Assembly: GCA_903934015.1 (NCBI GenBank)
Contig: CAIZMI010000034.1
Span: forward strand, 20,378-84,377
Direction of reading: 5' to 3'
From: an uncultured bacterium
Lineage (GTDB): Bacteria; Patescibacteriota; Andersenbacteria; UBA10190; CAIZMI01
DNA length: 64,000 nt
Part shown: in pieces, positions 3,838 to 47,724 of the stretch
Layout: each line of letters begins with the position of its first letter
How positions within the stretch are numbered: position 1 is the stretch's first letter
Made by a program: the position numbers and the translations under genes
Notes under the pieces: model-generated
Told to the model about the DNA's origin: nothing
What the model saw: the letters and a program-made list of their open reading frames with translations, nothing else
Databases searched by the model: none

Positions 3838-3848
3838 GCAAAAATAAT

Positions 3849-14190: not shown

Positions 14191-14270
14191 ATAATTAGTC
14201 TCTTTTGACCTCTTCTTGATTACTTGCTAACAGATAATGACACAAATATCTCAAACCGGCAATATCAATA

Positions 14271-30234: not shown

Positions 30235-30244
30235 TTCCAATGTT

Positions 30245-30937: not shown

Positions 30938-30949
30938 AAGTATTTCCTG

Positions 30950-31007
30950 CCACCCGCACGAAAAACCGTTTGCCTTTTTGGATCACTTGGCCGCTTCCGA
31001 CTTTTTT
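30950..31007 (+). repeat. degenerate duplicate of the tyrS 3' end (copy 1 of 4)
   Basis: In the tyrS reading frame the reverse complement encodes …VGSGQVIQKGKRFFVRV. The TyrS C-terminus is …VKTGNKIQKGKRFFVRVG. Confidence 0.65.
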
Positions 31008-31324
31008 GATTAATGAGTTTAACAACTTATACCACAACAATACTCACTGTTTCACCACTTCAATGAAATAATTAAAAAGCTCTATTACTCTCAGGAAAAG
31101 AGCTGTCGTTTCCCGCTTATTGCTTGCGTGATGAGGAAGCATAGTAAGAAAGTGACAACTCTCCAACAACAAGGAATTAATAAAGACACGATCAGTAACG
31201 CTAGTCGGAAACACTTCTAAGGGGTTTTCCCAAAAATTAAACTTCGTATCAATATTAAATATGAAATTTTTTTGAATATTTTCTCCAGACATATCAAATT
31301 TGTCCGCGTGAATCAAACACCCCG

Positions 31325-31870: not shown

Positions 31871-32685
31871 ATAAAAATATAATCATATAATCCGTGAAAC
31901 GAATGAAGTAGCTTCCCAAGATCGTATTCAATCGGCATCCTGGTTGCGCCATTTGGATCCACAAACTTCACGGAATCACCATTAATCAATATGTTTCCGA
32001 AATGTAAATCACCATGGATAAATCCGACACTTTGCGGTACAAATTTTTCTAAATATCTTTCTTGAGAAATTTTTTCCATTATCAGCGGTACGCCCAAATA
32101 TTCACAGCCATTAATAACAACATTCTTTAGGGCTAGTAATTCTCTTAACCATAAGATGCATTTTGCCTCATTCATTCTAAGACTTATCTTTCGCCAATAT
32201 AATCGTTCAATTTCGACTGCACCCAGAGTGAAAATATTTTTCGAATTATACAGTTCAAACAATATTTCCACGCTCTTTGCCACGTATTTTTTCAAATCAT
32301 CAAAACCAATATTATTATCACAAAAGACGCTTCCGAGAGAACGAAACTGTTCCAAAAATTCCAGCTCATAAATCGCCAAATACTGATCATAAAAGCCACC
32401 ATGAAAACATGGGGCAACATTATTATTAGCACCCAAAGACCGGTACCATTCGATTTCTTTAGAGGTTGTATCCGGCAGATATCCACTCTCCGCTTTCATA
32501 ACCCTCAACCCAAAGCGACTTTTGAAAACAACCAAAAGCGCCTTTGTATTATCTTCTTCGATAAATTTTACGACTCTTTCGCCAAGTATCCTATTAAAAC
32601 TCAGTTTAAGTTCGTCTTTGGTTAAGTGTGTTTTGGTTGATTTCAGCGATTCAATGGCCTCACAGTAAACATCAGACGTAGCCAT
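31804..32685 (-). CDS. aminoglycoside-phosphotransferase-like / choline-kinase-like protein kinase-fold enzyme; 3' end disrupted by the IS200 element
   Basis: Brenner motif HGDLHFGNIL and a downstream VDPNG. The last ~18 codons (…GLPRGPCKGRSGNHWFPV) are translated from the IS200 terminal hairpin. Confidence 0.65.
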   Translation of the reverse strand: MATSDVYCEAIESLKSTKTHLTKDELKLSFNRILGERVVKFIEEDNTKALLVVFKSRFGLRVMKAESGYLPDTTSKEIEWYRSLGANNNVAPCFHGGFYDQYLAIYELEFLEQFRSLGSVFCDNNIGFDDLKKYVAKSVEILFELYNSKNIFTLGAVEIERLYWRKISLRMNEAKCILWLRELLALKNVVINGCEYLGVPLIMEKISQERYLEKFVPQSVGFIHGDLHFGNILINGDSVKFVDPNGATRMPIEYDLGKLLHSFHGLYDYIFILPRGLPRGPCKGRSGNHWFPV

Positions 32686-33217
32686 AAAATTTGGCCGTAT
32701 GCCAAGCAATAAGCAGTGTCGGGTCCACAATGGCACCCCTCTTTAGTAAATCATCCAATTTTTCTTTTCTGACGATCCTTTCCTGTACCCTTTCCACGGA
32801 AGATGTTTGCCTCCCACTGACTTTTTCCATCTCATTCGAGAAAAAAATATGCAACATTCCATCAGATCTTCCCGGACGCATATAATAACTAACCAGTTTC
32901 TTAATTTTTTTGGGCTTATACCCCGTTTCTTCTATACATTCCCTGATTGCGGTTGCTTTGGGGCTTTCACCGGCATTTACCTTTCCTCCAGGAAGGTCAT
33001 AAATCCAAGAATCAATAGGAAATCTGTATTGATACGTCAAAAGCACGTCTCCCTCTTTCGGAACCAATAAAACCGCAGCTGCATCTTTTGAGCGATTTAC
33101 GGCATATTTTATTGTCTCCCCGTCGGGTAATTTCACAGTTTCCTCATAAAGGGGAAAGGGTTCGCCGTATATTGGCTGACTATGCACAATTTTCCATTTC
33201 TTGTTGATTGACTTCAT
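32672..33217 (-). CDS. Nudix hydrolase (ADP-ribose-pyrophosphatase-like)
   Basis: Nudix box GGKVNAGESPKATAIRECIEETG. Confidence 0.8.
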   Translation of the reverse strand: MKSINKKWKIVHSQPIYGEPFPLYEETVKLPDGETIKYAVNRSKDAAAVLLVPKEGDVLLTYQYRFPIDSWIYDLPGGKVNAGESPKATAIRECIEETGYKPKKIKKLVSYYMRPGRSDGMLHIFFSNEMEKVSGRQTSSVERVQERIVRKEKLDDLLKRGAIVDPTLLIAWHTAKFYGYV

Positions 33218-33311
33218 TTCAATGCTTGTTAATATACAATAATATTAAAGTTCGCTATCCGTAAACTATAGAACATTACACCAACTCCTTACAAGCATTA
33301 CTCAAAAGACC

Positions 33312-34421
33312 ATGCAAGAAAGTCTATCATTCAACTATAAGAAGAATTTCAATAAAGAGATTAAAATATACTTTTCGCAAGATAGTGCGAAAATTGTTGC
33401 TGACATATGTGGGTATTTAGGTACTGACCGAATTTTTATTGTTGCCGACAACGGCTTTAAAAACAACCACTCACACCGCCTTAAACAAAATCTATCAATT
33501 AAATTCCCCACTAAAGTACTAAATATAACCGCAAAAGAAATTAAGAAAAAATTATCCACCCTTCACAATTTGTCAGAAAAGATTATTGCCAATGGAGCGA
33601 CAAATAAATCAGTAATAATTTCGTTGGGCGGAGGACTGGTTGGAAATATCGCCGGCATGTTGGCGGGATTATTGTTTAGGGGCGTCCCGTTAATTCACAT
33701 ACCAACAACAGTTCTTTCGCAGGCGGATAGCGCAACGGACGTAAAACAGTCCGTCAATTGTGAAAACATAAAAAACGGGATGGGAATATATTATCCGCCT
33801 GTTGCCGTAATTATTGATGTGAATTTATTAAAAACACTCCCTGAACGCGAAGTCAGATCGGGTTTGGCGGAAATAATCAAGCATGCCCTGGCACAAGATG
33901 AAGATCTTCTTAGGTATTTATACAGAAAAGTCCCCACTCAAAAAATAAATGCGCCCACGCTTGAACGAATAATTGCCAGAACAATATCGCTCAAAATCGA
34001 ACACTGGAAAAACACGCCGGATATGTGGAGCGAGGAAGCAGTCAAAAAACCGGAAAGATTAACTCATCTTGGACACACGACGGGGAAAATTTTAGAGATT
34101 CTTCAACAAGATAAAATAACTCACGGCGAGGCAATCAGCCACGGAATGATAATCGAAGCCATCGCATCAAAAAAACTTGGAATTGGAAACGAGCAAATAA
34201 TTACCGAGATGAAAAAAGTATTTGGACGCTTTCAATTGCTTTATCCCCTCAAGAAAAACATTAATAGCTCTTCAGTTATTTATGGTCTTTATGGAAATAA
34301 AAACAAACAAAAAAATCCGATATTTGCTTTATTAAAAAATTTGGGTGTTCCAAAAACCGTTTCAACTTCAATAAATCCAGATATATTAAAAGAAGCACTG
34401 CTTGAATATGGAATCAAATAA
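33312..34421 (+). CDS. 3-dehydroquinate-synthase-like sugar phosphate cyclase (DHQS/DOIS/EEVS/DDGS superfamily)
   Basis: Glycine-rich NAD-binding motif SLGGGLVGNIAGMLAG; 369 aa; metal-binding His/Glu pattern in the C-terminal half. Confidence 0.7.
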   Translation: MQESLSFNYKKNFNKEIKIYFSQDSAKIVADICGYLGTDRIFIVADNGFKNNHSHRLKQNLSIKFPTKVLNITAKEIKKKLSTLHNLSEKIIANGATNKSVIISLGGGLVGNIAGMLAGLLFRGVPLIHIPTTVLSQADSATDVKQSVNCENIKNGMGIYYPPVAVIIDVNLLKTLPEREVRSGLAEIIKHALAQDEDLLRYLYRKVPTQKINAPTLERIIARTISLKIEHWKNTPDMWSEEAVKKPERLTHLGHTTGKILEILQQDKITHGEAISHGMIIEAIASKKLGIGNEQIITEMKKVFGRFQLLYPLKKNINSSSVIYGLYGNKNKQKNPIFALLKNLGVPKTVSTSINPDILKEALLEYGIK

Positions 34422-35190
34422 GAAAATAGTCATCTTATCAATACGCCGAAAACATTTTCCCAATACCACTCATATTGTTGAAAAACTGAAACGAGCAGGC
34501 GTGAATGTAATACACCCAAAAACGATAAGAGATTTTGAAAAAGCATGCAAAGTGATCAGTTCAAACGATATTATAATCACACTTTATTTTTCGAAAAATA
34601 ATAGCTTTAGAAAACAACTGGTAGCACTAGAAAAGAAGGGGTGCATGTTAATGGATCATCCCAACAAAATGCGGCTTACGGAAAACAGAAAGAAAACTAT
34701 GGAGTTATTGTCAAAGTCAAATATCAAGATTCCAAATTTCTATTTTGGACACCCTGACTGTATTCCAAATCATTTAGGAAATAAGCTGGTAATCAAACAT
34801 CCATTTGGACTTGCTATTGGTTTTATCGATACTAAGAGAGCTAGAGAAATTAACCAAAAGAACATTTACGTCGAAGAAATCCTTTTAAATCCCAAAAAAA
34901 CCGTCCGTTGTATCACTTACGTGTTTGGTATGGTGTTCACAAGAATCAAAAAGGACAAATTTGATATTGGTTTTGCCGATATACCGGGAACAGAGCCAAA
35001 AACGAGCACTTCGAAAAAAGATAGAATACTGGCGCAAAAGGTGCACAAACTTACCGGTATGGAATTATTCAACGTGGATTTAATCGACGAAGTTGTTATC
35101 GAGATAAATTGTTGTCCAAATTTTTTCTTGTACGACTCCATCGTCAAACATTTTGTTAAAAGAATTATAGAACTTTCGCAGAAACAATGA
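34402..35190 (+). CDS. ATP-grasp fold ligase
   Basis: LVIKHPFGLAIG, IYVEEIL, and LFNVDLIDEVVIEINCCPNF. The gene overlaps the cyclase stop codon. Confidence 0.6.
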   Translation: MNMESNKKIVILSIRRKHFPNTTHIVEKLKRAGVNVIHPKTIRDFEKACKVISSNDIIITLYFSKNNSFRKQLVALEKKGCMLMDHPNKMRLTENRKKTMELLSKSNIKIPNFYFGHPDCIPNHLGNKLVIKHPFGLAIGFIDTKRAREINQKNIYVEEILLNPKKTVRCITYVFGMVFTRIKKDKFDIGFADIPGTEPKTSTSKKDRILAQKVHKLTGMELFNVDLIDEVVIEINCCPNFFLYDSIVKHFVKRIIELSQKQ

Positions 35191-35993
35191 CGAACAATTA
35201 TGTAAATAACAAAAATGAAGTAAGGATGGTTTCAAAAGTAAGAAATAATTATTTCAGAAAATTTGTCGATTTTATTATCAAACAATCCTGCCTTAAAATG
35301 GATTCTGTCGTTGTTGACACCCCTTGTGGTACGGGAGAAATGACACAGTTATTGTTGAAAAAGGGGGTCGGAAAGAAATATTATCTTCTCGATATAAACC
35401 CATTTATGACAAAGGAGGCGCGAAATCGTTTACCGAAAAAATCAACCATTATTACCGGCGATGCCAACAATATTGCAAACTTTATTCCTGAAAGAGTCGA
35501 TACTATCTTTTGCTTAAACGGATTTCATATTTATCTATCCCGAAAGCGACAGTTTCTAAAGGGGTGTTACAAAATTCTAAGGCCCGGAGGAACTCTGATT
35601 TTTGACGTGTCAACAAAGGGATTAAACAATGAACAATCAAAAAGGTTTTTAGTGAAAGAAAACGCTGAAATGCGCATCCTATCCAGAAACAAATTTATTA
35701 AATATTGCGCGCTCAAATTGGCTAACCATAATACTTTGAAAAATTACCAAAACCTTCTCAGAGAAGCAGGCTTTTCAATTAAGACAGTAAAAATGTTTGA
35801 CACATGGAAAAGTGTCGATGAATTGGTGGATGAAACCACAAAAATACCTGGACGCCTACGCTCTCGACTATTGAACACCACAGATAAACAACGTGTGACA
35901 ATCTACAAGGAAGCCAACGAGGTTGCAAAGCAAGAAACCGGAATAAAACGCATCGAACACAACAGAATATTTTTTGTCGCAAAAAAACCATAG
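35187..35993 (+). CDS. class I SAM-dependent methyltransferase
   Basis: Motif I VVDTPCGTGEMTQLL. The start overlaps the ATP-grasp stop codon (ATGA). Confidence 0.8.
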   Translation: MTNNYVNNKNEVRMVSKVRNNYFRKFVDFIIKQSCLKMDSVVVDTPCGTGEMTQLLLKKGVGKKYYLLDINPFMTKEARNRLPKKSTIITGDANNIANFIPERVDTIFCLNGFHIYLSRKRQFLKGCYKILRPGGTLIFDVSTKGLNNEQSKRFLVKENAEMRILSRNKFIKYCALKLANHNTLKNYQNLLREAGFSIKTVKMFDTWKSVDELVDETTKIPGRLRSRLLNTTDKQRVTIYKEANEVAKQETGIKRIEHNRIFFVAKKP

Positions 35994-36032
35994 CACGGTG
36001 ATCAACACACTTTGTCTAAAAATTATGTCTTG

Positions 36033-36110
36033 CCCCGCCCGCGCGAAAACCTTTTACCTTTTTGGATCACTTGGTCACTTCCGACTTTTTGGTCGATTGT
36101 TTTCGCGACT
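36033..36110 (+). repeat. degenerate duplicate of the tyrS 3' end (copy 2 of 4; longest)
   Basis: The reverse complement translates to EVAKTIDQKVGSDQVIQKGKRFSRGRGKT. The TyrS C-terminus is VVKSIEQKVKTGNKIQKGKRFFVRVG. Confidence 0.65.
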
Positions 36111-36270
36111 TCCCCACTCATTTTTTATCCAATTTGCCGGCATAAAAAACCGGAATCAGGGACTCCGGCGAAACCATGCCACCATTCTCCGTGACGTTCC
36201 AGAAGATATCCACAAAGACTACAGTGACGCCCAGTAGCTTTTTCTAAATCAAAATGTTATAAATATAAAC

Positions 36271-36669
36271 ATGAATAAGAAATTAGTGATTTGTGCAAGT
36301 GCTTCATTTGAAAATGAAATTGTGGATTGGAAAAACAAGTTAGAAAACAATGGTTATGAGGTAATAAAATACCCCACGAAAATTAATGATGATCTCGTTA
36401 ATAAATACAAAAAGGAGTTTTCTGAACACTACGAAGCTATTACACGGACAGATGTTCTCCTTGCACTTAATTTAGATAAAAAAGGAATACCTGGTTATAT
36501 CGGAGCTGGTGTCTTTGCGGAAATTGCTTTTGGCATCGGTCTGAATCGAGCACTAAAAAAGAATATAGAGATCTATTATCTAAACTCATTCCCCAAAGAC
36601 GCCTTTCCCTATTCGGATGAATTAAAACTTTGGCAGGAGTTGGGCTGGATAAAACAGTTCCGCCCATAA
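36271..36669 (+). CDS. nucleoside 2-deoxyribosyltransferase-like protein; tentative
   Basis: GAGVFAEIAFGIGLNRAL resembles the NDT-family D.GT.FE.G.A motif. Confidence 0.4.
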   Translation: MNKKLVICASASFENEIVDWKNKLENNGYEVIKYPTKINDDLVNKYKKEFSEHYEAITRTDVLLALNLDKKGIPGYIGAGVFAEIAFGIGLNRALKKNIEIYYLNSFPKDAFPYSDELKLWQELGWIKQFRP

Positions 36670-36715
36670 ATAAAAACCGTACACGTTGTACGGCTGATAT
36701 TTTTTTGCGTCGATC

Positions 36716-38005
36716 TCACTGCCAATTTTCGACAAGGAATTGTTCTAGCACCCCGTAAGACCCTTCAAGTTGCGCAAAGTCTTCATCATCACCCCACCAG
36801 TGATAGTTGTTATGGTGGATATGGTATCTTTCCCAGCTAGACCCATTGTCGGGAATGTTGAGATTGAAAGCCTTCGCATTCCTGAAAACATACGAACCCG
36901 GTAATGGCACAAAGCGGAACAGGGATACCCTGTCAACCATCGGCGCAATATCTTTCAGGAGAGAAATTGTCTCATTTGTACTTTCCAGATTTTCACCGGG
37001 AAAGCCATGCACTAGAAAGATCTTGACCATCAAACCTACTGATATGGCAAGATTAACAGCTCTTCTGATTTGGTTAGTCGTCACATTCTTACCCATTGCC
37101 TGCAACATTCGTTCACTGCCGGATTCCACCCCAAATTTCAACTCAATACATCCCGCATCGTGCAAACACTCAAGCAGTTCATAATCAACCGTATCAACTC
37201 TGGAAAGCGCAGACCATTTCAGATTGAGACTTTCTACGGCTCTGCAGATTTCCCTCACCATCTTTTTGTTGATAATGAAGTTATCGTCAACTACCGCGAA
37301 GCCATCAATACCGTATCTGCGTTTGAGATGCTCGAGCTCCATTCTAACATTCTCGCCAGATCGACACTGAACCCTTTTTTGATAAACTGCGCAGAAATGA
37401 CAAGAAAATGGGCATCCTCGACTCATCATAATATGTGCCATTTTCATATCAGTATTTGCCAAACGATCATGCATAATTAAGTCCGACTCGTCGAGCAAAT
37501 GCCTCGCCGGAAAAGGAAGCCAATCTATCCCCTTTTCAAGAGAACGGCTTGCGGTCGTCTTTGGTGACTGATCGACCAAGTAGCCTACCCCTCTAATACT
37601 CGAAAAATCCCCAGTAGAATGTGCTCGTACGATTTCTACTAAGGTTTTTTCTCCGCTTCCTATCGCAACAACATCAGCCCGAAAATCCACAAGCGTTTCT
37701 TCTGGATAGAAACTGGCATGAACTCCACCAACCGCAATTGTAGTATTGGATGAATACATACCCCCAAACCTCGCCCTTTGGACAATCCCGTAAGTCGCCG
37801 AGGATGGGGTGCTAAACCCGACAACGTCATAACCCTGAAAATCACAACTATTTTCCCCCTCGTTAATCTTGAAGATTTTCACTTCAATATTATTTTCTTC
37901 AAGGAAAGCCGCGAGGTACAAAACACCAAACGGAGGAAATTCTTTTCTCTTTTCCTTAAAACGAGCAAGTTCGTAAACCTCTGGATAAACGAGAGCAACT
38001 CGCAT
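36716..38005 (-). CDS. B12-binding radical SAM enzyme (class B)
   Basis: N-terminal cobalamin-binding Rossmann-like domain. CxxxCxxC cluster motif SRGCPFSCHFCAV. Confidence 0.8.
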   Translation of the reverse strand: MRVALVYPEVYELARFKEKRKEFPPFGVLYLAAFLEENNIEVKIFKINEGENSCDFQGYDVVGFSTPSSATYGIVQRARFGGMYSSNTTIAVGGVHASFYPEETLVDFRADVVAIGSGEKTLVEIVRAHSTGDFSSIRGVGYLVDQSPKTTASRSLEKGIDWLPFPARHLLDESDLIMHDRLANTDMKMAHIMMSRGCPFSCHFCAVYQKRVQCRSGENVRMELEHLKRRYGIDGFAVVDDNFIINKKMVREICRAVESLNLKWSALSRVDTVDYELLECLHDAGCIELKFGVESGSERMLQAMGKNVTTNQIRRAVNLAISVGLMVKIFLVHGFPGENLESTNETISLLKDIAPMVDRVSLFRFVPLPGSYVFRNAKAFNLNIPDNGSSWERYHIHHNNYHWWGDDEDFAQLEGSYGVLEQFLVENWQ

Positions 38006-38174
38006 GTTAGACCCTTTCTACTTATTCAATTATTGAAAATGCAATCAGAGCCACAGAACTTGGCAACTTACAATATTATATGCGGATGATCAAGGCTTTC
38101 TACTTACAAGGTGTCAACGCTAAATGACAGAATATCAATCAGTTACCACCTCTCAGTTAATTGTTGGCACCTGA

Positions 38175-38591
38175 TCAGATTTTTTTCTTTTCGGAAAGCC
38201 ACCCAATCAACATCGTCTTTAAACTTTCCGGAAGTAATTTAACTTTATTCAACGACTTTATTTCAATAAACTCGAAACTTATGTGATTTTCCCTGCTCAC
38301 AATTTTTTCTGTACCAATTTCGACAACAAACACTAAATTTAATTCGTGATGTTTCGTTCCATTCTGTTTAAATATGTTTTCGACTACACCAACAGATTCT
38401 CCTAATTTCGCAACAGTTCCTAATTCTTCTCTAATTTCCCTTGCAAGCGCTTTTTGGGCCGACTCCCCAAATTCTATATGACCACCCGGTAAAAAACACC
38501 AGTCGGCCTCTTTGGCCTTGCACACTAACAATTTATCCCCCGAAACAATCACCGCGCGTACAATATTCTCGATAAAAAGATGGCTATCCAT
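38175..38591 (-). CDS. Nudix hydrolase
   Basis: Nudix box GGHIEFGESAQKALAREIREELG. Confidence 0.8.
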   Translation of the reverse strand: MDSHLFIENIVRAVIVSGDKLLVCKAKEADWCFLPGGHIEFGESAQKALAREIREELGTVAKLGESVGVVENIFKQNGTKHHELNLVFVVEIGTEKIVSRENHISFEFIEIKSLNKVKLLPESLKTMLIGWLSEKKKI

Positions 38592-38702
38592 ATTTTATAC
38601 CCTAGCAGATATTAACATTCTTTTCACTCGAGGATTTTTACAAACTTGAGATATCACCCTCAAACTTGTAATGTACTAATACAAGCATTTTCATTAGATT
38701 AA

Positions 38703-39263
38703 ATGGCCACGAAATATACAAAAGACGAAAATGAAATAATTGAAAAAGCAATTCTTTTTCTTGTTACCGAATATGAAAAAACTGGATCCAATGAAAAACC
38801 GGTAATATTTCATAGTCTGCGCGTCGCTTGCAAGCTTGTGGAAGTTGGCGCATCAGCCACTATTGTTACCGCCGCCATTCTGCATGATTTAATTGAAGAC
38901 ACCAATGTTGATTTTGAGCGAATAAAAAATATTTTTGGCAGTGATGTCGCAAAGCTCGTCGACGCCGTTTCTTTTAAACCAAATATCGTTGACAAAGAAG
39001 AACGATATAAAGAAATGTTCGAAAGAACAAAAAATGCCGGAACAGATGCACTTAAAATCAAATGTGCAGATATTTTAGATAACAGTAGCTATTACTCATT
39101 CGGCCTTGACCAAGAACACGAAAAACGCTTGATAAACAAGCTAAAATATTTTTTGTTTATTGCAGAACCACAATTAGACGATTTTCCCCTCTTTCAATTA
39201 CTGAATGAACGTTATCAAACATTACTCACCCAATTTAATAACGACAATAAAAAGCCAATATAA
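38703..39263 (+). CDS. HD-domain (p)ppGpp-hydrolase-like small alarmone hydrolase (RelA/SpoT HD domain only)
   Basis: FHSLRVACKLVE…AAILHDLIEDT matches the Rel/Spo hydrolase HD motif. Confidence 0.65.
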   Translation: MATKYTKDENEIIEKAILFLVTEYEKTGSNEKPVIFHSLRVACKLVEVGASATIVTAAILHDLIEDTNVDFERIKNIFGSDVAKLVDAVSFKPNIVDKEERYKEMFERTKNAGTDALKIKCADILDNSSYYSFGLDQEHEKRLINKLKYFLFIAEPQLDDFPLFQLLNERYQTLLTQFNNDNKKPI

Positions 39264-39299
39264 TGTTCACACGACTTATTTTTTTAACCACACATTAAT

Positions 39300-39622
39300 A
39301 TGAAATTTAAAGATTTAATCTCTAAAGCACTAGTGATCAGAGCTACGTATGGCGAGTATGAAGAAAAAACCTATGGCAAAAGGTGGACTAAAGAAAATAC
39401 CGCCGAGGACTTTGTTGGAGACGTGGGTGATTTAATGAATTTGGTGCTGGTCAAACAAGGAGTACGGCAAATAGAGGAGATTGATAAATAATCGCGCACG
39501 AATTATCTGATTGTTTATGGTCAATTATAGTTTTGGCTCAGTTCTATAATTTTGATTTGGAGTCCGCTTTTTTAACAAACATAGATGAATTAAAGTCTTT
39601 TATCGAAAATAAGATTAAATAA
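39300..39622 (+). pseudogene. MazG-like NTP pyrophosphohydrolase with a single-A frameshift
   Basis: N-terminal part ends …VGDLMNLVLVKQGVRQIEEIDK at the stop at 39489-39491. The C-terminal part continues in the -1 frame (IAHELSDCLWSIIVLAQFYNFDLESAF…). One extra A in the gataaataatc run would fuse the two parts. Confidence 0.55.
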
Positions 39623-39637
39623 AAATAATTTTGTCAG

Positions 39638-40027
39638 TCACACAGAATGAGATTTCCGTAGCCCAATTGCGAGACTGCTGATACAAAGCGCGTGATCAAA
39701 CTTTCCACTGACAATCATTTTCCACAACTTGTCCTCATCAATGAAACTGCAATTTATTACTTCCGCAGGATCTTCTTTTGGTTGAGAAATCTTAACCGGG
39801 TTTTTGACGAGAAAAACAAACATCTTATTGCTCTGTCTGGCTGGATTTGGTGACACCGTACCAACAAAAGAAAAATCTCCCGTATAACCAGTCTCCTCTA
39901 ATAATTCCCTTTTCGCGGCTTCAAGCGGATTTTTGTCTTTTTCATCCACGGCACCGCATGGCAATTCATAGCTCACTTTGCCAATTCCGTGACGATACAT
40001 AATAAGGAGAGACTTTTGTTCCGTCAC
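39638..40027 (-). CDS. Nudix hydrolase
   Basis: Nudix box GAVDEKDKNPLEAAKRELLEETG. Confidence 0.8.
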   Translation of the reverse strand: MTEQKSLLIMYRHGIGKVSYELPCGAVDEKDKNPLEAAKRELLEETGYTGDFSFVGTVSPNPARQSNKMFVFLVKNPVKISQPKEDPAEVINCSFIDEDKLWKMIVSGKFDHALCISSLAIGLRKSHSV

Positions 40028-40374
40028 TGGTCACACAATCATCCGCACGCACCTTAATCCATCGATCAGATAATACATAACGAGACCGCAGCACTTTCCA
40101 AGGCTTAATAATCTTTTTAAAATTTTTGACTAATTTCATGAACTTTCCAGGTTAGTTATTATCATTCCCTTTATGAATCATCCACTGATTTAACCCTAAC
40201 CACTTTCTTATTTTATTTCAATAACCTCGCCCTATCGGTGGTAGATACGAGCATACAGATTGAATATTTTCATTCGATGTTATCACAAAACTTAACTTAT
40301 TAAGTATAAAATTATTTGTGATACTTTTAAAAGTGACTATTTACCAAAAACGGTAATGAACCTAAAGTATCAAT

Positions 40375-40995
40375 ATGCAAAGTCATAACCCTAATCCCGA
40401 CGATAAATTAATTTGGACGGAAATATCAAGAAAACAATTATTCGAGAAATTTTCTCGTGGCATTGATGATGTTGTCTTCAAATTTCCTGATAATCAAATA
40501 CACCATTATTTTATTAAAAATGAGCCGGACACGGTCTGCACACTGGCTTTTGATCAAAATAATCAGGTTATTTTGGCACAACAATTTCGACCCGGTCCAC
40601 AAAAGGTTCTTCTCACGCTCCCTGGAGGAGGCCTAGAGCCTGGTCATGATCCCATTTCAAGTGCCACAAGAGAACTAATGGAAGAGGTTGGTTACGAAAG
40701 CCATCTCAATCTCACTGCAACCTTTTTTGATGACGGGTACTCTACAAGCAGACGCTATTGTTTTTTAGCTGTAAATTGTACGAAAACAAATATCCAAAAA
40801 CTAGATCCGACAGAATTTATCAACACTGTTCAACTGCCCATTGATATCTTTATGGATGAACTCCGAAACGGAAGTATTACTGATCCGGAAGCAGCCTATG
40901 CTGCAATAGATTTTATTAATAAAAATGCGGATTCTCGGAAAGAATACAGCGACTTAAGTGAGTTGTTCAAAAAAACAATATATACGGCTTATTAA
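40375..40995 (+). CDS. Nudix hydrolase
   Basis: Nudix box PGGGLEPGHDPISSATRELMEEVG. Confidence 0.8.
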   Translation: MQSHNPNPDDKLIWTEISRKQLFEKFSRGIDDVVFKFPDNQIHHYFIKNEPDTVCTLAFDQNNQVILAQQFRPGPQKVLLTLPGGGLEPGHDPISSATRELMEEVGYESHLNLTATFFDDGYSTSRRYCFLAVNCTKTNIQKLDPTEFINTVQLPIDIFMDELRNGSITDPEAAYAAIDFINKNADSRKEYSDLSELFKKTIYTAY

Positions 40996-41383
40996 AAAAC
41001 CCTCCATGTTGAGAGGGCTTGTAATAATACAATTATCAGTTTTGAATCAATGGGGTGACACAAAAAGAAAAACAAAAAAGCGTGGTAAGCCTCATCAAGG
41101 GGTTGATAATAGAAGAAATTTTCCTTAAACAAGAGTAGTTTGTCTACCGTTATATCTAGTCCAATTTCCTCTTTGACCTCGCGCTTTAAAGCGTCCTCCA
41201 TTTTTTCTCCGACTTCCATCCCGCCCCGGGAAACCAAAGTTTACCATTACTTTTGTTTCGCATCGTTACAACCTTACCTTGCTCCAAAATAATACCGTAA
41301 ACGCTGGGTCGGAAATAAAACTTCTCGAGAGGAACATCCACCATTTCGTCAAAATTATTTTTGCAAGAAATAAATTTGTCCAT
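40992..41383 (-). pseudogene. Nudix hydrolase split by a frameshift in a G-run inside the Nudix box
   Basis: N-terminal fragment ends …KLWFPGAGWKSEKKWRTL. The C-terminal fragment begins VSRGGMEVGEKMEDALKREVKEEIG. One extra G in ggggcggg restores PGGGMEVGEK…. Confidence 0.55.
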
Positions 41384-41436
41384 TAGTCAACTATTTACAG
41401 AATGGTACCAAACGTGCGTTATTGCAACTGACACCA

Positions 41437-41739
41437 TTAGTTTCCCAAATGTCTCTGCAATAAAAATTTTGTCGTTAACTTTAATTTTCTATCAATGCGT
41501 AAATCATCCACGATTACTGCCAAATTTTGCCAATCTTCTTCTGTGAAATAACGCCACAACAGACGGTTGATGAAACGACTGTAATATTGACGTTCTTCCG
41601 CCGTGTTCCGCCATGGCTGTTTGCACAACATTCCGTCTCAGTTGGTCAGTGCCTCAATATCCGAGGGCGAATAATTCATCATAAATATAGTTTATCATTA
41701 ACGCCCGTGATATTGTTAATCTTGGCTATGCACAATTAA
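41437..41739 (-). pseudogene. paralog of the 80-aa small protein at 43719-43961, with TGG to TGA nonsense change
   Basis: Reads MMNYSPSDIEALTN-stop-DGMLCKQPWRNTAEERQYYSRFINRLLWRY…, about 90% identical to the intact copy. The stop codon sits where the paralog has Trp. Confidence 0.5.
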
Positions 41740-41819
41740 TATTTGCATGAATTTGACAACATAGGTCTCGTCCGTAACAGCCAAATTCGCGTTAATTTTA
41801 CTGTTTTGAATTATGCTTT

Positions 41820-41853
41820 TACAAAAAACCGCTTGCCTTTTGGGATTATTTGG
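41820..41853 (+). repeat. degenerate duplicate of the tyrS 3' end (copy 3 of 4)
   Basis: The reverse complement encodes GQIIPKGKRFFVKA followed by a stop. Confidence 0.5.
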
Positions 41854-41886
41854 CCAAATTTTTACACAAAAAAAGATCGGCTATCA

Positions 41887-42444
41887 CTAACCGATCTCAC
41901 AACCTCTTGATCTAAGAAAACGCATTAACGCCTCACTCGCATGAAAAAAGGTCCCGTTATTGGCGATCTCGATGTCCGCCAGTGAAACAACTTCGGCCAT
42001 TCCCGCTTCCGTCTTAAATCGGTCAATGAGACGCATTTCTGCAATCGCCACATCCAATGAACAACTCAAGCGTCGTTGCATATTAGATTGCCGACGATCA
42101 ACTGAAGCATGAATCAAAACAGTTAGGCAATTTGCACCAGGAAATGCTTCCACTATCCCCTGTTTCAACCAGGGATCGTAGCAACCATCAATCACAACAC
42201 TTACGCCTTTCTCCAGCATTTGCTGAAGAATAACGAGTGTTTTTTTGCGTGCACATTGCACTAAATGATTAGTACCGGCTTTTTTCCACCAGTCTCTAAC
42301 ATGCTTTTCCCCAGCAAACACCGCCAGTTCGTGCAACAACGCTCGTTCCTTGATTATCTGCCAACGAGGATCGGCTTCAACCAGCGCCTTCGCGATAGTT
42401 GATTTTCCCGTCCCGCTCGGTCCAGTGAGCAAAAGAATGAACAT
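41887..42444 (-). CDS. P-loop NTPase / small-molecule kinase-like protein
   Basis: Walker A LLLTGPSGTGKSTIA at the N-terminus. GC-richer than neighbours. Confidence 0.55.
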   Translation of the reverse strand: MFILLLTGPSGTGKSTIAKALVEADPRWQIIKERALLHELAVFAGEKHVRDWWKKAGTNHLVQCARKKTLVILQQMLEKGVSVVIDGCYDPWLKQGIVEAFPGANCLTVLIHASVDRRQSNMQRRLSCSLDVAIAEMRLIDRFKTEAGMAEVVSLADIEIANNGTFFHASEALMRFLRSRGCEIG

Positions 42445-42889
42445 TTCTCTTTTCCCTCCAAAAATCCGCGACTATTTGTTTTGTGCCGACAATGGTTTTT
42501 AATTTTTTCAGCTCCTTATTACTTACCCACTTGTAGACTTTGTGTTCATCGCTAAGTTGCAAAATTCCATCGCAACCAACCAAAAAAACAATACGCACAA
42601 TCAAGTAGCTGATGCCGTTTGTTTTAGTCAAAATCTGCGTTACTGTCAATGGCTCACTTTTAACGACCACCAACCCCGTCTCCTCTTTGACCTCCCTCTC
42701 CATTGCCTCTCGCGCCACCTCCCGCACCTCCAATTTGCCTTCGGGAAGTTGCCACAAACCCCTGAAAGATTTGTGATTTATACTGCGTTTCAACATCAAA
42801 ATACGACTGTTTTTATCGACAATAATCGCTGAAGCAACTAATTTAATTTGCGTTAAATCAGGTATGTTCATTTTGTAATTTTTGCGCAT
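42377..42889 (-). CDS. Nudix hydrolase
   Basis: Nudix box EGKLEVREVAREAMEREVKEETG. The C-terminal 68 nt overlap the downstream kinase ORF, so the true 3' end is uncertain. Confidence 0.65.
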   Translation of the reverse strand: MRKNYKMNIPDLTQIKLVASAIIVDKNSRILMLKRSINHKSFRGLWQLPEGKLEVREVAREAMEREVKEETGLVVVKSEPLTVTQILTKTNGISYLIVRIVFLVGCDGILQLSDEHKVYKWVSNKELKKLKTIVGTKQIVADFWREKRNVHSFAHWTERDGKINYREGAG

Positions 42890-43697
42890 AAGTTCGCATA
42901 CGTGCGACAACCTCTCTCACCTTTAACCAATTTTCATCCAAGTTTTTTTCTGCCAAATCCAAATGCAAAAATAATTGGCGAAATGATTCTTTGTAAGGTG
43001 CCCCTTCTAACAAAGGAAATGAACTGTAACCAACCTCGCGGTCTTCTTCAACCTCGCGAATATCATCGATCAGTTGCATGGCAACGCCATACCCATTAGC
43101 AAAACCCAAGGCTTTTTCTCTGACATCTTCACGCTCGGCCAAAGCGCACCCAAATAAAGCACCAATGGAATTAAACACACAAATATGTTCTATCCCCGGG
43201 CGATAATCACTAAAGTTTGTCGCTTTGTTTTCCCAAAGCAATGAAATATTCTTCCGCTGATAATAATGGTTCAAATTAATCTGCTGTAACAATATATCCA
43301 ACGCCTTCTTCTTATCCATTTCAATCAACATCCTTGTGCCTTCAATCGCCATAATATTCCCCGCAAAAACCAGGCACGACACTAAATCCCTTTCTTTGGG
43401 CATTTCGTCAACAATGTCATCGTGTGTCGAAATCGGTAGCATTGTCATCCCCAGCGCGATCAATGCCTTATCATCAACAGATTTTCCGGTTAAATCAAAA
43501 TGAAAAGCTTCACAAATGACCATCGGCGCCAAAGCGATTACTTTTTTCGGAAGAACAATAAACAATTTTTCTAAACCGGCATCAGGATATGATTTTACAA
43601 CTTCCGCAACTACCGGAATTAGCAACTCACGATAGCGCGTAACGTCGCCGTACAAATCTCCAACCAAACTTGATGTACCACCAACTTTTGATGACAT
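42858..43697 (-). CDS. polyprenyl synthetase family protein (short-chain trans-isoprenyl diphosphate synthase-like)
   Basis: Two Asp-rich motifs, HDDIVDE and QLIDDIREVEED. Confidence 0.7.
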   Translation of the reverse strand: MSSKVGGTSSLVGDLYGDVTRYRELLIPVVAEVVKSYPDAGLEKLFIVLPKKVIALAPMVICEAFHFDLTGKSVDDKALIALGMTMLPISTHDDIVDEMPKERDLVSCLVFAGNIMAIEGTRMLIEMDKKKALDILLQQINLNHYYQRKNISLLWENKATNFSDYRPGIEHICVFNSIGALFGCALAEREDVREKALGFANGYGVAMQLIDDIREVEEDREVGYSSFPLLEGAPYKESFRQLFLHLDLAEKNLDENWLKVREVVARMRTYAQKLQNEHT

Positions 43698-43718
43698 ATA
43701 ATTCCTTAATTATAACCC

Positions 43719-43961
43719 TTATTTCAAATGTCTTCGCAATAAAAATTTTGTGGTGAGTTTTAGTTTTCTGTCTATGCGCAAATCATCAACGATTTTTGCC
43801 AAATTTTGCCAATCTTCTTCTGTCAAATAACGCCACAACAGACGGTTGATGAAGCGACTGTAATATTGACGTTCTTCCGCTGTATTCCGCCATGGCTGTT
43901 TGCACAACATTCCGTCCCAGTTGGTTAACGCCTCAAGATCCGAAGATGAATAGTTCATCAT
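43719..43961 (-). CDS. small conserved hypothetical protein (80 aa) translationally coupled to the upstream NTase gene
   Basis: ATGA overlap with the 43958-44629 gene. A pseudogenised paralog lies at 41437-41739. Confidence 0.5.
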   Translation of the reverse strand: MMNYSSSDLEALTNWDGMLCKQPWRNTAEERQYYSRFINRLLWRYLTEEDWQNLAKIVDDLRIDRKLKLTTKFLLRRHLK

Positions 43962-44629
43962 AAGGTCGTACTGTTAATTAATTTATCTATTTGTGCTGTA
44001 ACTAATTCAATATTTGTTATGCCGTCACGTAAAAACATCTCCGGCCTTAATTGAAACTGCTCCCTTTTCGCAACAAGCTCGCTTAATAATTTTTCTTCAC
44101 CAATCGTTCCCAAACGAAATTTCTTTTCTGCGATTTCAGCAAGATTACGAAGAGACCAATTTTGTTTTTTTGTAAGAAAGGCAATATCGATATAATCCTT
44201 AATTTCATCTCGCGAACAAAGCGCCGACGCTTTGCCGGCGGCCGCATCTTCCAAACTCGCCGTTGCCAATGTTCCAAACACTACAAAGCTCCCAATTTGG
44301 GAAATATTATCGTGTACCGCGTCAATCACCATTCCACTGGCCTTATCCATCCAACCGCGATCAGTATCGACAATTTGATCAACACCAAAAAGCTCTTGCG
44401 CCAAACGGTGCAACCGGATCATCCGTTGGTTAAATACAAGCGCATCAACTTCCGGATAAGTAAAAAAATCAAGATCATTTGATTGTCGCGGAACAATACC
44501 CAACGCTTTTAATAATGTGCCACCGGTCAAATAAAAAGTACGCGCCAGTTCAACATCGTCAGCCACGTTTTTAATCACCTCCAATTGCGGTTCAGTTAAA
44601 TCTTGCAACTCATCAATTGTTCTAATCAT
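43958..44629 (-). CDS. nucleotidyltransferase of the AbiEii/DUF1814-like toxin family
   Basis: YLTGGTLLKALGIVPRQSNDLDFF resembles the AbiEii GGTAL…R.S.D.DF motif. Confidence 0.55.
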   Translation of the reverse strand: MIRTIDELQDLTEPQLEVIKNVADDVELARTFYLTGGTLLKALGIVPRQSNDLDFFTYPEVDALVFNQRMIRLHRLAQELFGVDQIVDTDRGWMDKASGMVIDAVHDNISQIGSFVVFGTLATASLEDAAAGKASALCSRDEIKDYIDIAFLTKKQNWSLRNLAEIAEKKFRLGTIGEEKLLSELVAKREQFQLRPEMFLRDGITNIELVTAQIDKLINSTTL

Positions 44630-44692: not shown

Positions 44693-45889
44693 TTATCCCA
44701 CCCGCACGAAAAATCGTTTGCCCTTTTGGATTTTATTACCTGTTTTAACTTTTTGTTCAATTGATTTTACAACTTCTTCGTCGATTTTAACCGCGCCCTG
44801 TTCAACCAATTGACGCGCTTTTGTTTTGCTCGTGGCGATTTTACTTTCTACTAACGCATCGACAATCGTCATGCCGGCAACTTTAGCTGTTGGCATTTCA
44901 TCTGGCGTTGTTTTCTTCTGAAAAACATTCACAAAGTAGTCTTGCGCTTCTTTAGCCGCCGCTTCCCCTGCATACATTTTTACCAACTCGGAAGCCAGGG
45001 CCATCTTGATATCGCGTGGATTCGTTTTACCGGCTTTTAATTCCTTGGCATATGTTTCCACCTGTTCCATCGGTAAACGTGTGCAATGCTCAAAATACGT
45101 GACAATTAGGCCATCTGGAACACTCATCACCTTCCCAAACATGTCGTTCGGCGCATCAGTGAGATTGATCGTGTTGCCCCAACTGGAGCTCATCTTGCGA
45201 CCGTCCGTACCCAATACCAAATTTGTCATCACGATGTCTTGCGATTCTTGTCCGTAGTGTTTTTGAATTTCTCTACCGGCCAACAAATTGAAACGTTGAT
45301 CCGTACCACCTAGTTCGACATCGGATTTCACCGCCACGCTGTCATAACCTTGCATCAAGGGATATAAAAGTTCGCGCAACGAAACACGACTTCCCTCTTT
45401 CAGGCGTTTGCTGATATTTTCACGCGCAATAAATTCGGCCAAGGAAAAATAATTAGCAAGCCGACCAATTTCCGCAAAACCCAATTTCTTAAGCCAAGAG
45501 GAATTATATTGCACTTCCGCTTTTTCAAGATCCAAAATTTTCCCGGCCTGTTCAACGTAGGTTTTCATGTTCTTGGCGATTTCTTGCTCCTCCAACATTT
45601 TCCGTTCGCTTTCCTTGTCGGAAGTATCACCAATTACGCCCGTAAAATCACCGACAATGAAAACTACTTGGTGTCCAAGCTTTTGGAAATCGCGCAATTT
45701 GAGCAGTGTTACTGAACGACCAATGTGAAGATTAGGGCTAGTCGGATCAATCCCCAATTTAACCCGCAGTTGTTTTCCCGATAACAACTGTTCTTCCAGA
45801 TGTTTTTTATCGATAACCTCATTAACACCGCGTGTTAACAATTCACTAATGGCTTCTTTGTCGGTACTTAATTCCATAACATTCAGCAT
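44693..45889 (-). CDS. tyrS: tyrosyl-tRNA synthetase
   Basis: HIGH motif (PTSPNLHIGRSV) and KMSKS motif (KMSSSWGN). C-terminal S4 domain ending KGKRFFVRVG. Confidence 0.9.
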   Translation of the reverse strand: MLNVMELSTDKEAISELLTRGVNEVIDKKHLEEQLLSGKQLRVKLGIDPTSPNLHIGRSVTLLKLRDFQKLGHQVVFIVGDFTGVIGDTSDKESERKMLEEQEIAKNMKTYVEQAGKILDLEKAEVQYNSSWLKKLGFAEIGRLANYFSLAEFIARENISKRLKEGSRVSLRELLYPLMQGYDSVAVKSDVELGGTDQRFNLLAGREIQKHYGQESQDIVMTNLVLGTDGRKMSSSWGNTINLTDAPNDMFGKVMSVPDGLIVTYFEHCTRLPMEQVETYAKELKAGKTNPRDIKMALASELVKMYAGEAAAKEAQDYFVNVFQKKTTPDEMPTAKVAGMTIVDALVESKIATSKTKARQLVEQGAVKIDEEVVKSIEQKVKTGNKIQKGKRFFVRVG

Positions 45890-45919: not shown

Positions 45920-46249
45920 TTATAAAGGATTCCTTCCTGCTTGCAACAGAACCCTTTGTTCCTCAATTATTTTTCGGAAAGATTCATCAACTCGATTCAA
46001 ATCAACCAAATCGACTTTAATTGGTAAATTCGATTCGGAAAAAACATCTGCCATTAATCCCAATACTTTCGAATCAATCGGTTTCTCACAGTCAATAGCC
46101 AAATCAAGATCAGAAGCTGGTTTTGCCTTTCCACTTATTCGTGAACCAAAAACCCAAACAGCGCAACTTGAAACATGAGTGCGTAAAATGTTATTCACAA
46201 TCTCCAATTGTTCCGAACTTAAATCAATTTTTTTAGTTGCTTCGTTCAA
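45920..46249 (-). CDS. minimal nucleotidyltransferase (MNT/HI0073-like)
   Basis: NTase signature VFGSRISGKAKPASDLDLAID. Confidence 0.7.
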   Translation of the reverse strand: MNEATKKIDLSSEQLEIVNNILRTHVSSCAVWVFGSRISGKAKPASDLDLAIDCEKPIDSKVLGLMADVFSESNLPIKVDLVDLNRVDESFRKIIEEQRVLLQAGRNPL

Positions 46250-46628
46250 GGTTTTCCAGTAAATATTTCGCTTCCGTTAAAAATGGTTCCGCAAAAGAAT
46301 AAACGTGCGTCGCCACCTTCACATCATATGTATGTGATGTTTGATTTCGCGCTTTTCGATATTCAAACCATTGTTCGACATTTTTAACATATCCCCGTTC
46401 AAACGCAGTTCGTAAAATGTCGTTATATATCATTTGATCAACATTGTCGTTGTGCTTCATTTCCAAAACCCTTTTAATAAATTTTACCGCCAGTTCATGG
46501 GAATATTCAAAACGCTGAATCACGCCATCGCGGGATAATTCGTTTTCCGGTTCTTTTTTCGCGCGCAAAAGCCCTTCTTCAAGCTGTTTCAGAGCATTTT
46601 TAAGTGGAGTGAGATCCAGTACGTTCAT
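46233..46628 (-). CDS. HEPN-domain protein (HI0074-like NTase substrate-binding family)
   Basis: Rx4HxY HEPN motif RNQTSHTYD near the C-terminal third. Start taken at the internal Met. Confidence 0.6.
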   Translation of the reverse strand: MNVLDLTPLKNALKQLEEGLLRAKKEPENELSRDGVIQRFEYSHELAVKFIKRVLEMKHNDNVDQMIYNDILRTAFERGYVKNVEQWFEYRKARNQTSHTYDVKVATHVYSFAEPFLTEAKYLLENLERSN

Positions 46629-46686
46629 AAAGTCAGTGTACAACCAATTGCGCCAATGTTCCAAATTCCATATCCTGAAGAGTACT

Positions 46687-47724
46687 ATGACATTTGCCGA
46701 ATATTGCCAACAAAATAACGACGCTATACTCAAAACAATCGTGAATTATCTTCCTGAACGCGAACCGCTTGGCCATTACCAAGTTGCGCGGGAATACACG
46801 TTGCGCAAAGGGAAATATGCGCGACCAAATCTGGCACTGCTTTGGACGGAACTTTTTGGCGAATCAAAAGAAATTGTATTCCCCTTTGCTTGTGGTATCC
46901 AAATGGCAGAAGACTGGTTTTTGATGCAAGACGATTGGATGGATCAAAACGAAATGCGACGCGGAAAACCAACCGCCCATTTACTTTATGGCGCGTCCGC
47001 CACGATCAATGCCAGCAATTCGGTTCAAGCGTCGATGTGGAAGATGGTGCATGAGGGGACGTTACAAACCCACCCCCGCCCTCCCTTATCCGGGAGGGAA
47101 ACGACGACGCGACTTTTTGATAAATTCTACGACATTATTAACGTGACTATTGAGGGACAGTATCTAGATTTGAAATTAACTGAACGAAAAATTACCGATT
47201 TTACCCTCGAAGATTACTGGCAATCAATCCACGCCAAGGCGGCCTACTATTCCGTTTATGGGCCAATGCAACTCGGCGCAATCTCGGCGGGACAACCGGA
47301 AAATGTGGTAGAAAAAATCGCGGACTACGGAGAAAAAATCGGTCGTGCTTTTCAACTAAAGGATGATATTCTCGATTGTACTTCAAACGAAGAAACGCTT
47401 GGAAAAACAATTGGAAATGATGTTTTAGAAGGCACAAAGACGGCCATTCTTTGGCATTGTATTCAAAAAGCTAGCTCACAGGATTTAGAAAAACTACAAG
47501 CAATCTATGCGAAAAAACGAACAGAGAAAACTGCTGATGAAATTGGTTATGTCTTGGATTTGTTTAATACCACTGGCAGTATCACTTATGCCGAGCACTT
47601 AACCGATTCCCTGGCAAAAGAAGCGATGTTGGAATTTGAAAAACAAACGACAAGCCTCCCCGAAACGGAGTTAAAAGACACTGCTCGCGATGCGATACTT
47701 AAAATGACTCAACGAGAAAAATAA
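46687..47724 (+). CDS. polyprenyl (geranylgeranyl/farnesyl) diphosphate synthase
   Basis: First Asp-rich motif LMQDDWMDQNEMRRGKP and second FQLKDDILD. Start taken at the internal Met. Confidence 0.8.
   Translation: MTFAEYCQQNNDAILKTIVNYLPEREPLGHYQVAREYTLRKGKYARPNLALLWTELFGESKEIVFPFACGIQMAEDWFLMQDDWMDQNEMRRGKPTAHLLYGASATINASNSVQASMWKMVHEGTLQTHPRPPLSGRETTTRLFDKFYDIINVTIEGQYLDLKLTERKITDFTLEDYWQSIHAKAAYYSVYGPMQLGAISAGQPENVVEKIADYGEKIGRAFQLKDDILDCTSNEETLGKTIGNDVLEGTKTAILWHCIQKASSQDLEKLQAIYAKKRTEKTADEIGYVLDLFNTTGSITYAEHLTDSLAKEAMLEFEKQTTSLPETELKDTARDAILKMTQREK

Follow-up and report, generated by a model that had tools for sequence, protein, structure and literature searches.

We analysed a stretch of 64,000 nucleotides (nt) from an uncultured bacterium of the Andersenbacteria (Patescibacteriota), hereafter called the window, and concentrated on two overlapping genes of its reverse strand, which encode a nucleotidyltransferase (NTase) of the DUF1814/AbiEii family and a protein of 80 amino acids (aa). 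The initial annotation of this DNA had read the pair as a two-gene toxin-antitoxin or addiction module, and had pointed to a second, damaged copy of the small gene. The features concerned are as follows.

43958-44629 (-), open reading frame (ORF) of the NTase, a 223-aa member of the DUF1814/AbiEii family (Pfam PF08843) and putative toxin
43719-43961 (-), ORF of the small gene, copy 1, encoding 80 aa, putative antitoxin
43958-43961 (-), ATGA overlap, made up of the stop codon of the NTase gene and the start codon of the small gene and read directly in the sequence
44693-45889 (-), tyrS, encoding tyrosyl-tRNA synthetase (Pfam tRNA-synt_1b, E = 3e-72)
41437-41682 (-), orphan copy 2 of the small gene, with a TGA at codon 15 (41638-41640)

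The upstream neighbour of the NTase gene is tyrS, from which it is separated by a spacer of 63 nt, and no AbiEi-type gene adjoins it (neighbours checked by Pfam), as had been claimed. The AbiEi Pfam family was likewise not found on the neighbour genes in the 14 contigs inspected. The overlap with the gene of the 80-aa protein, also noted at the outset, is evident at 43958-43961, and is of a kind predicted to couple the translation of the two genes.

The NTase ORF, which contains TGGTLLKALGIVPRQSNDLDFF, matches PF08843 (AbiEii) with E = 2.1e-12 and 47.9 bits, against a curated cutoff of 22.5 bits; the match covers residues 25-173 and profile positions 8-188 of 238. Twelve PADLOC AbiEii models also match, in agreement with the AbiEii-type signature recognised initially, and more than 100 homologues of the NTase exceed the PF08843 threshold as well. 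Across 31 sequences of the subfamily, the invariant residues are G36-G37, S50, D52, D54, D128, K133, R140-D141-E142, K144-D145 and D148. Motif I is formed by G36-G37...S50-N-D52-L-D54 and the C-terminal motif by K133...D145..D148, while G36-G37 together with D52-L-D54 conform to the Pol-beta NTase motif hG[GS]-x(9-15)-DxD. The catalytic Asp residues, whose absence the initial annotation had named as a possible counter-indication, are therefore all in place, and the NTase is a DUF1814/AbiEii family member with its catalytic residues intact.

In the AlphaFold2 (AF2) model of the NTase (predicted local distance difference test, pLDDT, 95), G36-G37 are placed at the end of a strand and D52 and D54 on the next strand (52-57) of the strand-helix-strand core, and S50 sits on the loop ahead of the latter strand. 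A Foldseek search of this model against the PDB returned JHP933 of Helicobacter pylori (E = 1.8e-5, probability 1.0, template modelling (TM) score 0.48) and the mycobacterial toxin MenT1 (8AN5_A, probability 0.98, TM 0.48/0.53), the TM values of these best matches being moderate. A profile search against PDB sequences gave no match, so that the fold search and the Pfam match are what connects the NTase to MenT1 and JHP933. The spacing of K133, D145 and D148 (12 and 15 residues) is that of K137, D149 and D152 in MenT1, and S50 stands two residues ahead of the catalytic D52, like T39 in the T39-x-D41 of MenT1. The activity of MenT1 is abolished by D41A, K137A or D152A, and its phosphoacceptor is T39 (PMC11375011). 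Auto-phosphorylation of T39, induced by the antitoxin, inactivates the toxin, and the same holds for S78 of MenT3 and T65 of AbiEii (PMC11375011; bioRxiv 10.64898/2026.01.19.700257).

Searches with the small protein, in contrast to those with the NTase, returned nothing meaningful in Pfam (E <= 0.1), NCBIfam or PADLOC. No PDB sequence was matched by phmmer at E <= 10. The best library matches, to Csn2 (E = 0.018) and to a lytic transglycosylase (E = 0.051), were judged not meaningful, and one weak match in PHROGs (phrog_32356, a 43-aa family of unknown function; E = 6e-4) was judged uninformative. Structure prediction, recommended at the outset, yielded four helices (6-19, 27-39, 48-60 and 65-78) with a mean pLDDT of 85, for which Foldseek found no fold match in the PDB (none with E < 1, 8AN5 included) or in BFVD. 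AF2 confidence is lowest in the N-terminal 20 residues, within which lies the densest invariant run of the protein, E10-A-L-T-N-W-D16; a low-confidence yet invariant terminus of this sort would be typical of a segment that becomes ordered on binding a partner. Homologues are few: 11 among 5.8e9 clustered proteins (60-85% identity), and only about 5 clusters in a hidden Markov model scan of 1.84e9 representatives; on each contig of these homologues that could be examined, the small gene directly follows one for a 223-aa AbiEii protein. The small protein thus appears to belong to an undescribed family, with no relatives that could be detected by sequence or by predicted fold. The NTase subfamily, for its part, comprises about 100 clusters at 90% identity, mostly from Patescibacteria.

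The two proteins differ in further respects. The small protein is basic (pI 9.5 for copy 1) and the NTase acidic, a pattern found in 13 of 13 pairs (isoelectric points, pI, of 9.5-10.3 and 4.6-5.3, respectively). It is also the better conserved of the two, with a mean identity of 60% versus 53% and the higher value in 91% of pairs, and the divergences of the two proteins are correlated (r = 0.75).

The linkage of the two genes was assessed from both sides. Starting from the NTase, 16 loci were available (ten from species-representative genomes, four further contigs, the related locus L092, and the contigs of the window itself), and in all 16 the small gene lies directly downstream. Starting from the small protein, 19 metagenome loci were recovered, one of which was too short; among the 18 informative loci, the NTase gene precedes the small gene with the ATGA overlap in 14 and at a distance of 160 nt in one, and is missing from three, so that it is directly upstream in 15 of 18. 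The small protein was thus not found mostly on its own, an outcome that the initial annotation had named as contrary to its proposal. The ATGA overlap itself was present at each of the 13 loci analysed in full and at 14 further loci from metagenomes. While the pair is conserved in the other genomes, as the proposed neighbourhood check had been meant to establish, its contexts differ: its neighbours include an IS110 transposase, rpsJ and rplC, the gene of a 1141-aa AAA_5 protein, an inositol phosphatase gene and tyrS, directly after which it stands in the window and in the related loci L006 and L092. Because the flanking genes change from locus to locus, the cassette is a horizontally mobile two-gene module. 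Two co-oriented, overlapping genes inherited together in varied contexts are what is generally expected of a toxin-antitoxin system, and the strict linkage, the coupling and the mobility show the NTase and small genes to be a conserved unit. Carriage by phages was considered and rejected, as no relatives of the module were found in the viral contigs of IMG/VR; no defence-island neighbours were found at the cassette loci inspected.

The genes of the S10 ribosomal-protein operon normally keep an invariant order. In a Saccharibacteria metagenome-assembled genome (MAG; CAZSWB010000070.1, locus L005/L009, 1147-2057), the NTase-small cassette lies within this operon, between rpsJ (S10) and rplC (L3).

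Loss of one partner was found in one direction only. Five loci keep the small gene next to a deleted or frameshifted NTase gene: (i) at copy 2 of the window the NTase gene is deleted and the small gene, with its TGA, remains; (ii) at L102 the small gene is intact, and all that remains of the NTase ahead of it is its last few codons (...TTL*), with no NTase in the 6.2 kb recovered of a 15.9-kb contig; (iii) at L098 the NTase is cut to about 20 N-terminal codons followed by a stop, and the small gene is intact; (iv) L109 has no NTase and an N-terminally truncated small gene; and (v) at L015 a frameshift disrupts the NTase, and the reading frame of the small gene is kept. The converse, an NTase gene without the small gene, was not found at any of the 16 NTase-ascertained loci. 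Such one-sided loss is expected if the NTase is harmful on its own and the small protein is its harmless antidote, and the pattern fits a putative toxin role for the NTase and an antitoxin role for the small protein. By the same token it argues against the reverse assignment of roles. Recurrent deletion of the toxin gene with retention of the small gene may, moreover, offer a means of assigning toxin and antitoxin roles from sequence only.

At L015 (4001-4910 of the Saccharibacteria MAG contig CAZLVG010000003.1) the frameshift falls at about residue 160 of the NTase, the C-terminal part of which runs in frame into the small protein, with neither a stop codon nor the ATGA overlap; this locus represents either a decaying module or an assembly error.

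The second copy of the small gene in the window was compared with copy 1 and with L092. Three further features belong to its surroundings.

41684-41716 (-), deletion junction upstream of copy 2, from blastn colinearity with L092
41780-41862 (-), remnant of the tyrS 3' end with its downstream spacer, at the head of the second accreted segment
41873-41898 (-), hairpin with a T-run, resembling a terminator and placed just ahead of the tyrS-end remnant

A copy about 90% identical had been placed at 41437-41739; the identity is borne out (89%, 212 of 238 nt), while the copy ends at 41682, the former bound having been about 57 nt too generous. Homology between the copies is limited to 41446-41683 versus 43725-43962, that is, to the small ORF alone. 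As had been observed, an in-frame TGA, at 41638-41640, takes the place of a TGG, here the codon of the invariant Trp15. It is identical in four independent metagenome assemblies of the organism and is therefore real and not a sequencing error. That TGA might be read as a sense codon was considered and rejected: in all loci the NTase terminates, after 223 aa, at the TGA of the ATGA overlap. From Met18 onwards a 64-aa ORF (41437-41631) is still open.

The two copies differ by 18 synonymous and 7 non-synonymous changes, with a synonymous divergence (dS) of 0.55 and a ratio of non-synonymous to synonymous divergence (dN/dS) of 0.07, and at the differing sites copy 2 usually carries the residue of the family consensus. 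These values indicate that copy 2 evolved under purifying selection and that its nonsense codon is recent; the low dN/dS and the consensus residues together argue that it derives from a separately evolving functional module and not from local decay. The lack of an NTase partner, correctly noted before, can be traced by comparison with L092. Window positions 41862-41716 are colinear with L092 2777-2988 (tyrS end and tyrS-NTase spacer; blastn), and homology resumes at window 41683, equal to L092 3761, exactly at the start codon of the small gene, so that about 770 nt, comprising the rest of the spacer and the entire NTase ORF, are missing. L006 has a Nudix gene after its small gene; the window homologue of this Nudix gene follows copy 2 and is frameshifted. 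The second segment is accordingly a captured copy of the tyrS-end/NTase/small/Nudix region of another strain, and the apparent frameshift points to its further decay. This Nudix gene (41109-41383, minus strand) lies directly downstream of copy 2 and is matched by the L006 ORF in two frames (80% and 92% identity); the L006 homologue runs off the end of its contig.

Taking these data together, we consider it probable that the pair is a toxin-antitoxin or abortive-infection-type cassette, consisting of a MenT-like NTase toxin directed at tRNA 3' ends and of a translationally coupled, downstream-encoded antitoxin that binds it. The mobility of the pair, the ATGA overlap and the one-way loss of the NTase lend support to the module as first proposed; the toxicity of the NTase, its tRNA target and the mode of its neutralisation are inferred. 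In such a scheme the NTase would act on tRNA 3' ends by MenT-like nucleotidylation and so inhibit growth; the small protein would be made by termination-reinitiation at the ATGA overlap and would neutralise the NTase by direct binding, possibly by triggering its auto-phosphorylation at the invariant Ser50, as MenA1, MenA3 and AbiEi do at Thr39, Ser78 and Thr65, respectively. The cassette moves horizontally among Patescibacteria and, in the lineage of the window, heads a variable region that begins right behind tyrS. Copy 2 would be an orphan antitoxin gene, the remainder of a second tyrS-end-NTase-small segment from which the toxin gene was lost, with a nonsense codon of recent origin.

Several observations weigh against this interpretation. 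The gene order is toxin-first, unlike that of AbiE and MenAT. A basic small protein paired with an acidic NTase is the reverse of the textbook type II charge pattern, and a small protein that outconserves its NTase is the opposite of what is usual for fast-evolving antitoxins. No DNA-binding domain is recognisable in the small protein, and a promoter scan of the region did not exceed the shuffled expectation and gave no distinct promoter; autoregulation is hence unsupported. Finally, the equivalence of Ser50, K133 and D148 to the MenT1 residues is deduced from motif position and spacing, and not from a residue-level structural alignment.

Some of these observations would be accommodated if the NTase were a defence (abortive-infection) or regulatory enzyme, of which the small protein is the obligate sensor, adaptor or activator instead of the antitoxin. 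AbiEii members are abortive-infection effectors, and the PADLOC AbiEii models match; a basic protein more conserved than the NTase would suit an adaptor binding nucleic acid or a target, and its invariant N-terminal motif EALTNWDG resembles a binding site. An obligate adaptor would, however, be expected to disappear together with its enzyme, yet intact small genes outlast the NTase at L102 and L098 and NTase-only loci were never seen. Matches in viral contigs and defence-island neighbours, as reported above, are also lacking. We therefore regard this alternative as unlikely, though better placed than those that follow.

The roles of the two proteins could also be reversed, in a type VII-like arrangement: toxicity would then reside in the small basic protein, and the acidic NTase would serve as an enzymatic antitoxin, nucleotidylating its partner or sequestering it. 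In the MntA/HepT (MNT-HEPN) system the NTase indeed acts as the antitoxin, and one such pair lies only 1.3 kb away (45920-46733). The antitoxin gene would in that case come first; the small partner has the basic charge and the high conservation that are usual among toxins; and a nonsense codon at the invariant Trp of the window orphan is what would be expected of an unguarded toxin. Against this stand the intact orphan small genes at L102 and L098, with no NTase in the recovered locus, which would be intolerable for an unguarded toxin, and the fact that the NTase never occurs alone, though no harm would be expected from an orphan antitoxin. All DUF1814 NTases characterised so far (AbiEii, MenT1, MenT3 and MenT4), moreover, are toxins (PMC7450476, PMC10435456, bioRxiv 10.64898/2026.01.19.700257). 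Reversed roles are in our view highly improbable.

Least credible of all is a housekeeping NTase for tRNA processing or repair with its cofactor, linked to tyrS and neither selfish nor toxic, as the position directly downstream of tyrS with no predicted terminator between (window, L006 and L092) and the action of the enzyme family on tRNA 3' ends might suggest, for the distribution is patchy (about 100 NTase and about a dozen small-protein clusters at 90% identity among billions), the contexts in other genomes are unrelated, NTase deletions recur and one cassette is inserted in the S10 ribosomal operon.

Returning to the toxin-antitoxin cassette, we compared it with the known systems of the family. 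MenAT1 of Mycobacterium tuberculosis (Rv0078B-Rv0078A) is similar in that it combines a short DUF1814 NTase (MenT1, about 190 aa), whose structures (PDB 8AN4/8AN5) are among the best fold matches of the window NTase, with a very short and purely helical partner; both NTases have a Ser/Thr phosphoacceptor position two residues before the catalytic Asp and an identical K...D..D spacing. MenA1, which counteracts a DUF1814 toxin, is a helical protein of 68 aa and is devoid of a DNA-binding domain (PMC10435456). In contrast, the 80-aa protein has no sequence or fold similarity to MenA1, four helices being predicted instead of the two of MenA1; the window NTase is not detectably similar to MenT1 in sequence; and the partner gene here overlaps the downstream end of the NTase gene by ATGA, the position of menA1 being upstream in 15 of 21 cases (PMC10435456).

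AbiE (AbiEi-AbiEii; Streptococcus agalactiae/Lactococcus), MenAT3 and MenAT4 share with the present pair a PF08843 NTase with the same catalytic motifs, a bicistronic organisation and horizontal spread. They differ in that no AbiEi/COG5340 winged-helix antitoxin occurs near the window NTase, which is also shorter (223 aa), and in that the gene order is inverted. The best structural match, JHP933 of Helicobacter pylori (PDB 4O8S/4OK0; Foldseek E = 2e-5, TM 0.48), is a DUF1814 NTase of similar length (227-232 aa) encoded in a mobile plasticity zone; its identity to the window NTase is about 19%, and the cited literature gives it no comparable small downstream partner.

The nearest relatives of the NTase outside its own subfamily (25-34% identity, about 220 aa) are the uncharacterised short AbiEii NTases of loci L017-L050. 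Many of these have a 70-100-aa ORF overlapping the 5' end of their gene. Some of the upstream ORFs match Pfam DUF6922 (PF21956; E = 9e-13 and 6e-7), and a 68-aa 'NWDYD' group accounts for 116 clusters from Patescibacteria (Parcubacteria-type genomes), the 'NWDYD' and related partners measuring 68-81 aa. As in the window, the genes overlap and an acidic NTase is often combined with a small, mostly basic partner, a charge trend that is also seen in the DUF6922-type pairs; unlike in the window, the partner overlaps the 5' end of the NTase gene and a downstream small gene is absent. Judging from gene order, short AbiEii-type NTases recurrently pair with small non-AbiEi proteins, and the subfamily of the window is distinguished by an unrelated partner encoded downstream. 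DUF6922 is not mentioned in the literature that was searched, a search that did not extend to the other upstream groups. A further upstream group at these loci consists of 81-aa proteins with the motif LFWFLK...FWEDF, the upstream families being apparently unrelated to each other.

We considered whether the small protein could itself belong to DUF6922 or to another of the upstream groups, and rejected this on hhalign probabilities of 0.08-1.3%. A resemblance to the 'NWDYD' proteins seen by eye (NWD...W...Y..R.IN...DW..L) gave inconsistent Smith-Waterman z scores of -0.5 to 4.2, and the relation was rejected by a profile-profile comparison with a 41-sequence alignment (0.2% probability).

In other toxin-antitoxin families a toxin-first gene order is known, namely in higBA, hicAB and mqsRA. 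The toxin family, a short helical partner such as MenA1 and the toxin-first order elsewhere are accordingly already known, while no earlier description appears to exist of the partner family, of the fold predicted for it, of where it is encoded or of its restriction to Patescibacteria. Going further, the 80-aa protein could found a new and structurally unprecedented family of DUF1814/MenT antitoxins, confined to Patescibacteria, encoded after the toxin and more conserved than it, a proposal that we put forward only tentatively and that we think may well not hold. Its strong conservation might mean that it also contacts a conserved component such as tRNA, acting both as inhibitor and as substrate gate. 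Orphan small genes, e.g. that at 41437-41682, may serve, or may once have served, as anti-addiction genes; if so, they would allow tyrS-linked segments to be stacked or exchanged with no activation of the toxin.

The DUF1814 (AbiEii/MenT) toxins, which inhibit growth and modify tRNA, form a widespread class. The known antitoxins of this class, AbiEi/MenA3 and MenA1, are mutually unrelated, yet converge on inducing auto-phosphorylation of the toxin. A third partner, unrelated to these two and encoded in the inverted order, would put the generality of this mechanism to the test and would add a new small-protein fold to the antitoxin repertoire. Few candidate toxin-antitoxin or defence modules are specific to the reduced genomes of Patescibacteria, and the pair is one of them.

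The module was also proposed to form part of the conserved end of the islands. The true tyrS 3' end (44698-44769) is repeated at 36034-36105 and 30950-31021 (repeat family D3), and a fourth, degenerate copy lies beside copy 2 of the small gene; its core (41824-41846; chance expectation 0) is part of a stretch, 41716-41862, that is colinear with the tyrS end and spacer of the L006 and L092 relatives (blastn). Each copy of the small gene does, then, adjoin a tyrS-end repeat, as had been reported. The wider claim stands for this lineage, where the module follows tyrS in the window, L006 and L092, and fails for other Patescibacteria, in which it lies elsewhere. Within the window, the module accompanies only two of the four tyrS-end copies, and no tyrS-end direct repeats flanking it were found in L006 and L092, so that the cassette itself is not bounded by these repeats.

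The gene order of L092 is polyprenyl synthase, HEPN, MNT, tyrS, NTase, small gene and S-adenosylmethionine (AdoMet) decarboxylase, the last being 93% identical to window 28454-28873. Relative to L092, the window carries about 14.8 kb (28873-43719) between the small gene and the decarboxylase, punctuated by three tyrS-end remnants (30950-31021, 36034-36105 and 41780-41862), which indicates that variable segments were stacked in tandem downstream of tyrS. No integrase was recognised within this insertion. Its cargo is unusually rich in Nudix hydrolases (at least 5) and further includes a B12-binding radical SAM enzyme, an HD_4 protein, an APH-type kinase, a methyltransferase, a DHQ-synthase-like protein, a divergent polyprenyl-synthase-like protein and a P-loop kinase. 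An IS200-like Y1 transposase gene (31360-31794, minus strand; Y1_Tnp, E = 5e-34) is situated in the third accreted segment, near the last tyrS-end remnant. The hairpin at 41873-41898 offers weak evidence for an end of the tyrS-NTase-small-279aa-Nudix-kinase gene string, the counts of the terminator scan of the region, this hairpin included, not being above those of shuffled sequences.

Directly upstream of tyrS, at 45920-46733 on the minus strand, a HEPN gene (NTase_sub_bind, 46233-46733) overlaps an MNT gene (Polbeta NTase, 45920-46249). This pair constitutes a second, classical toxin-antitoxin-type module and has the same place in L092. Elsewhere in the window, tandem repeats with tRNA sequence were seen at 13905-13979 and 14132-14206 (97% identical, with one tRNA-Arg called within 13889-14206) and at 3573-3651 and 3744-3822 (96% identical, with one tRNA-Ser called within 3573-3839). 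A 54-nt inverted repeat (13685-13738 and 63653-63706, 89% complementary) lies beside tRNA genes about 50 kb apart.

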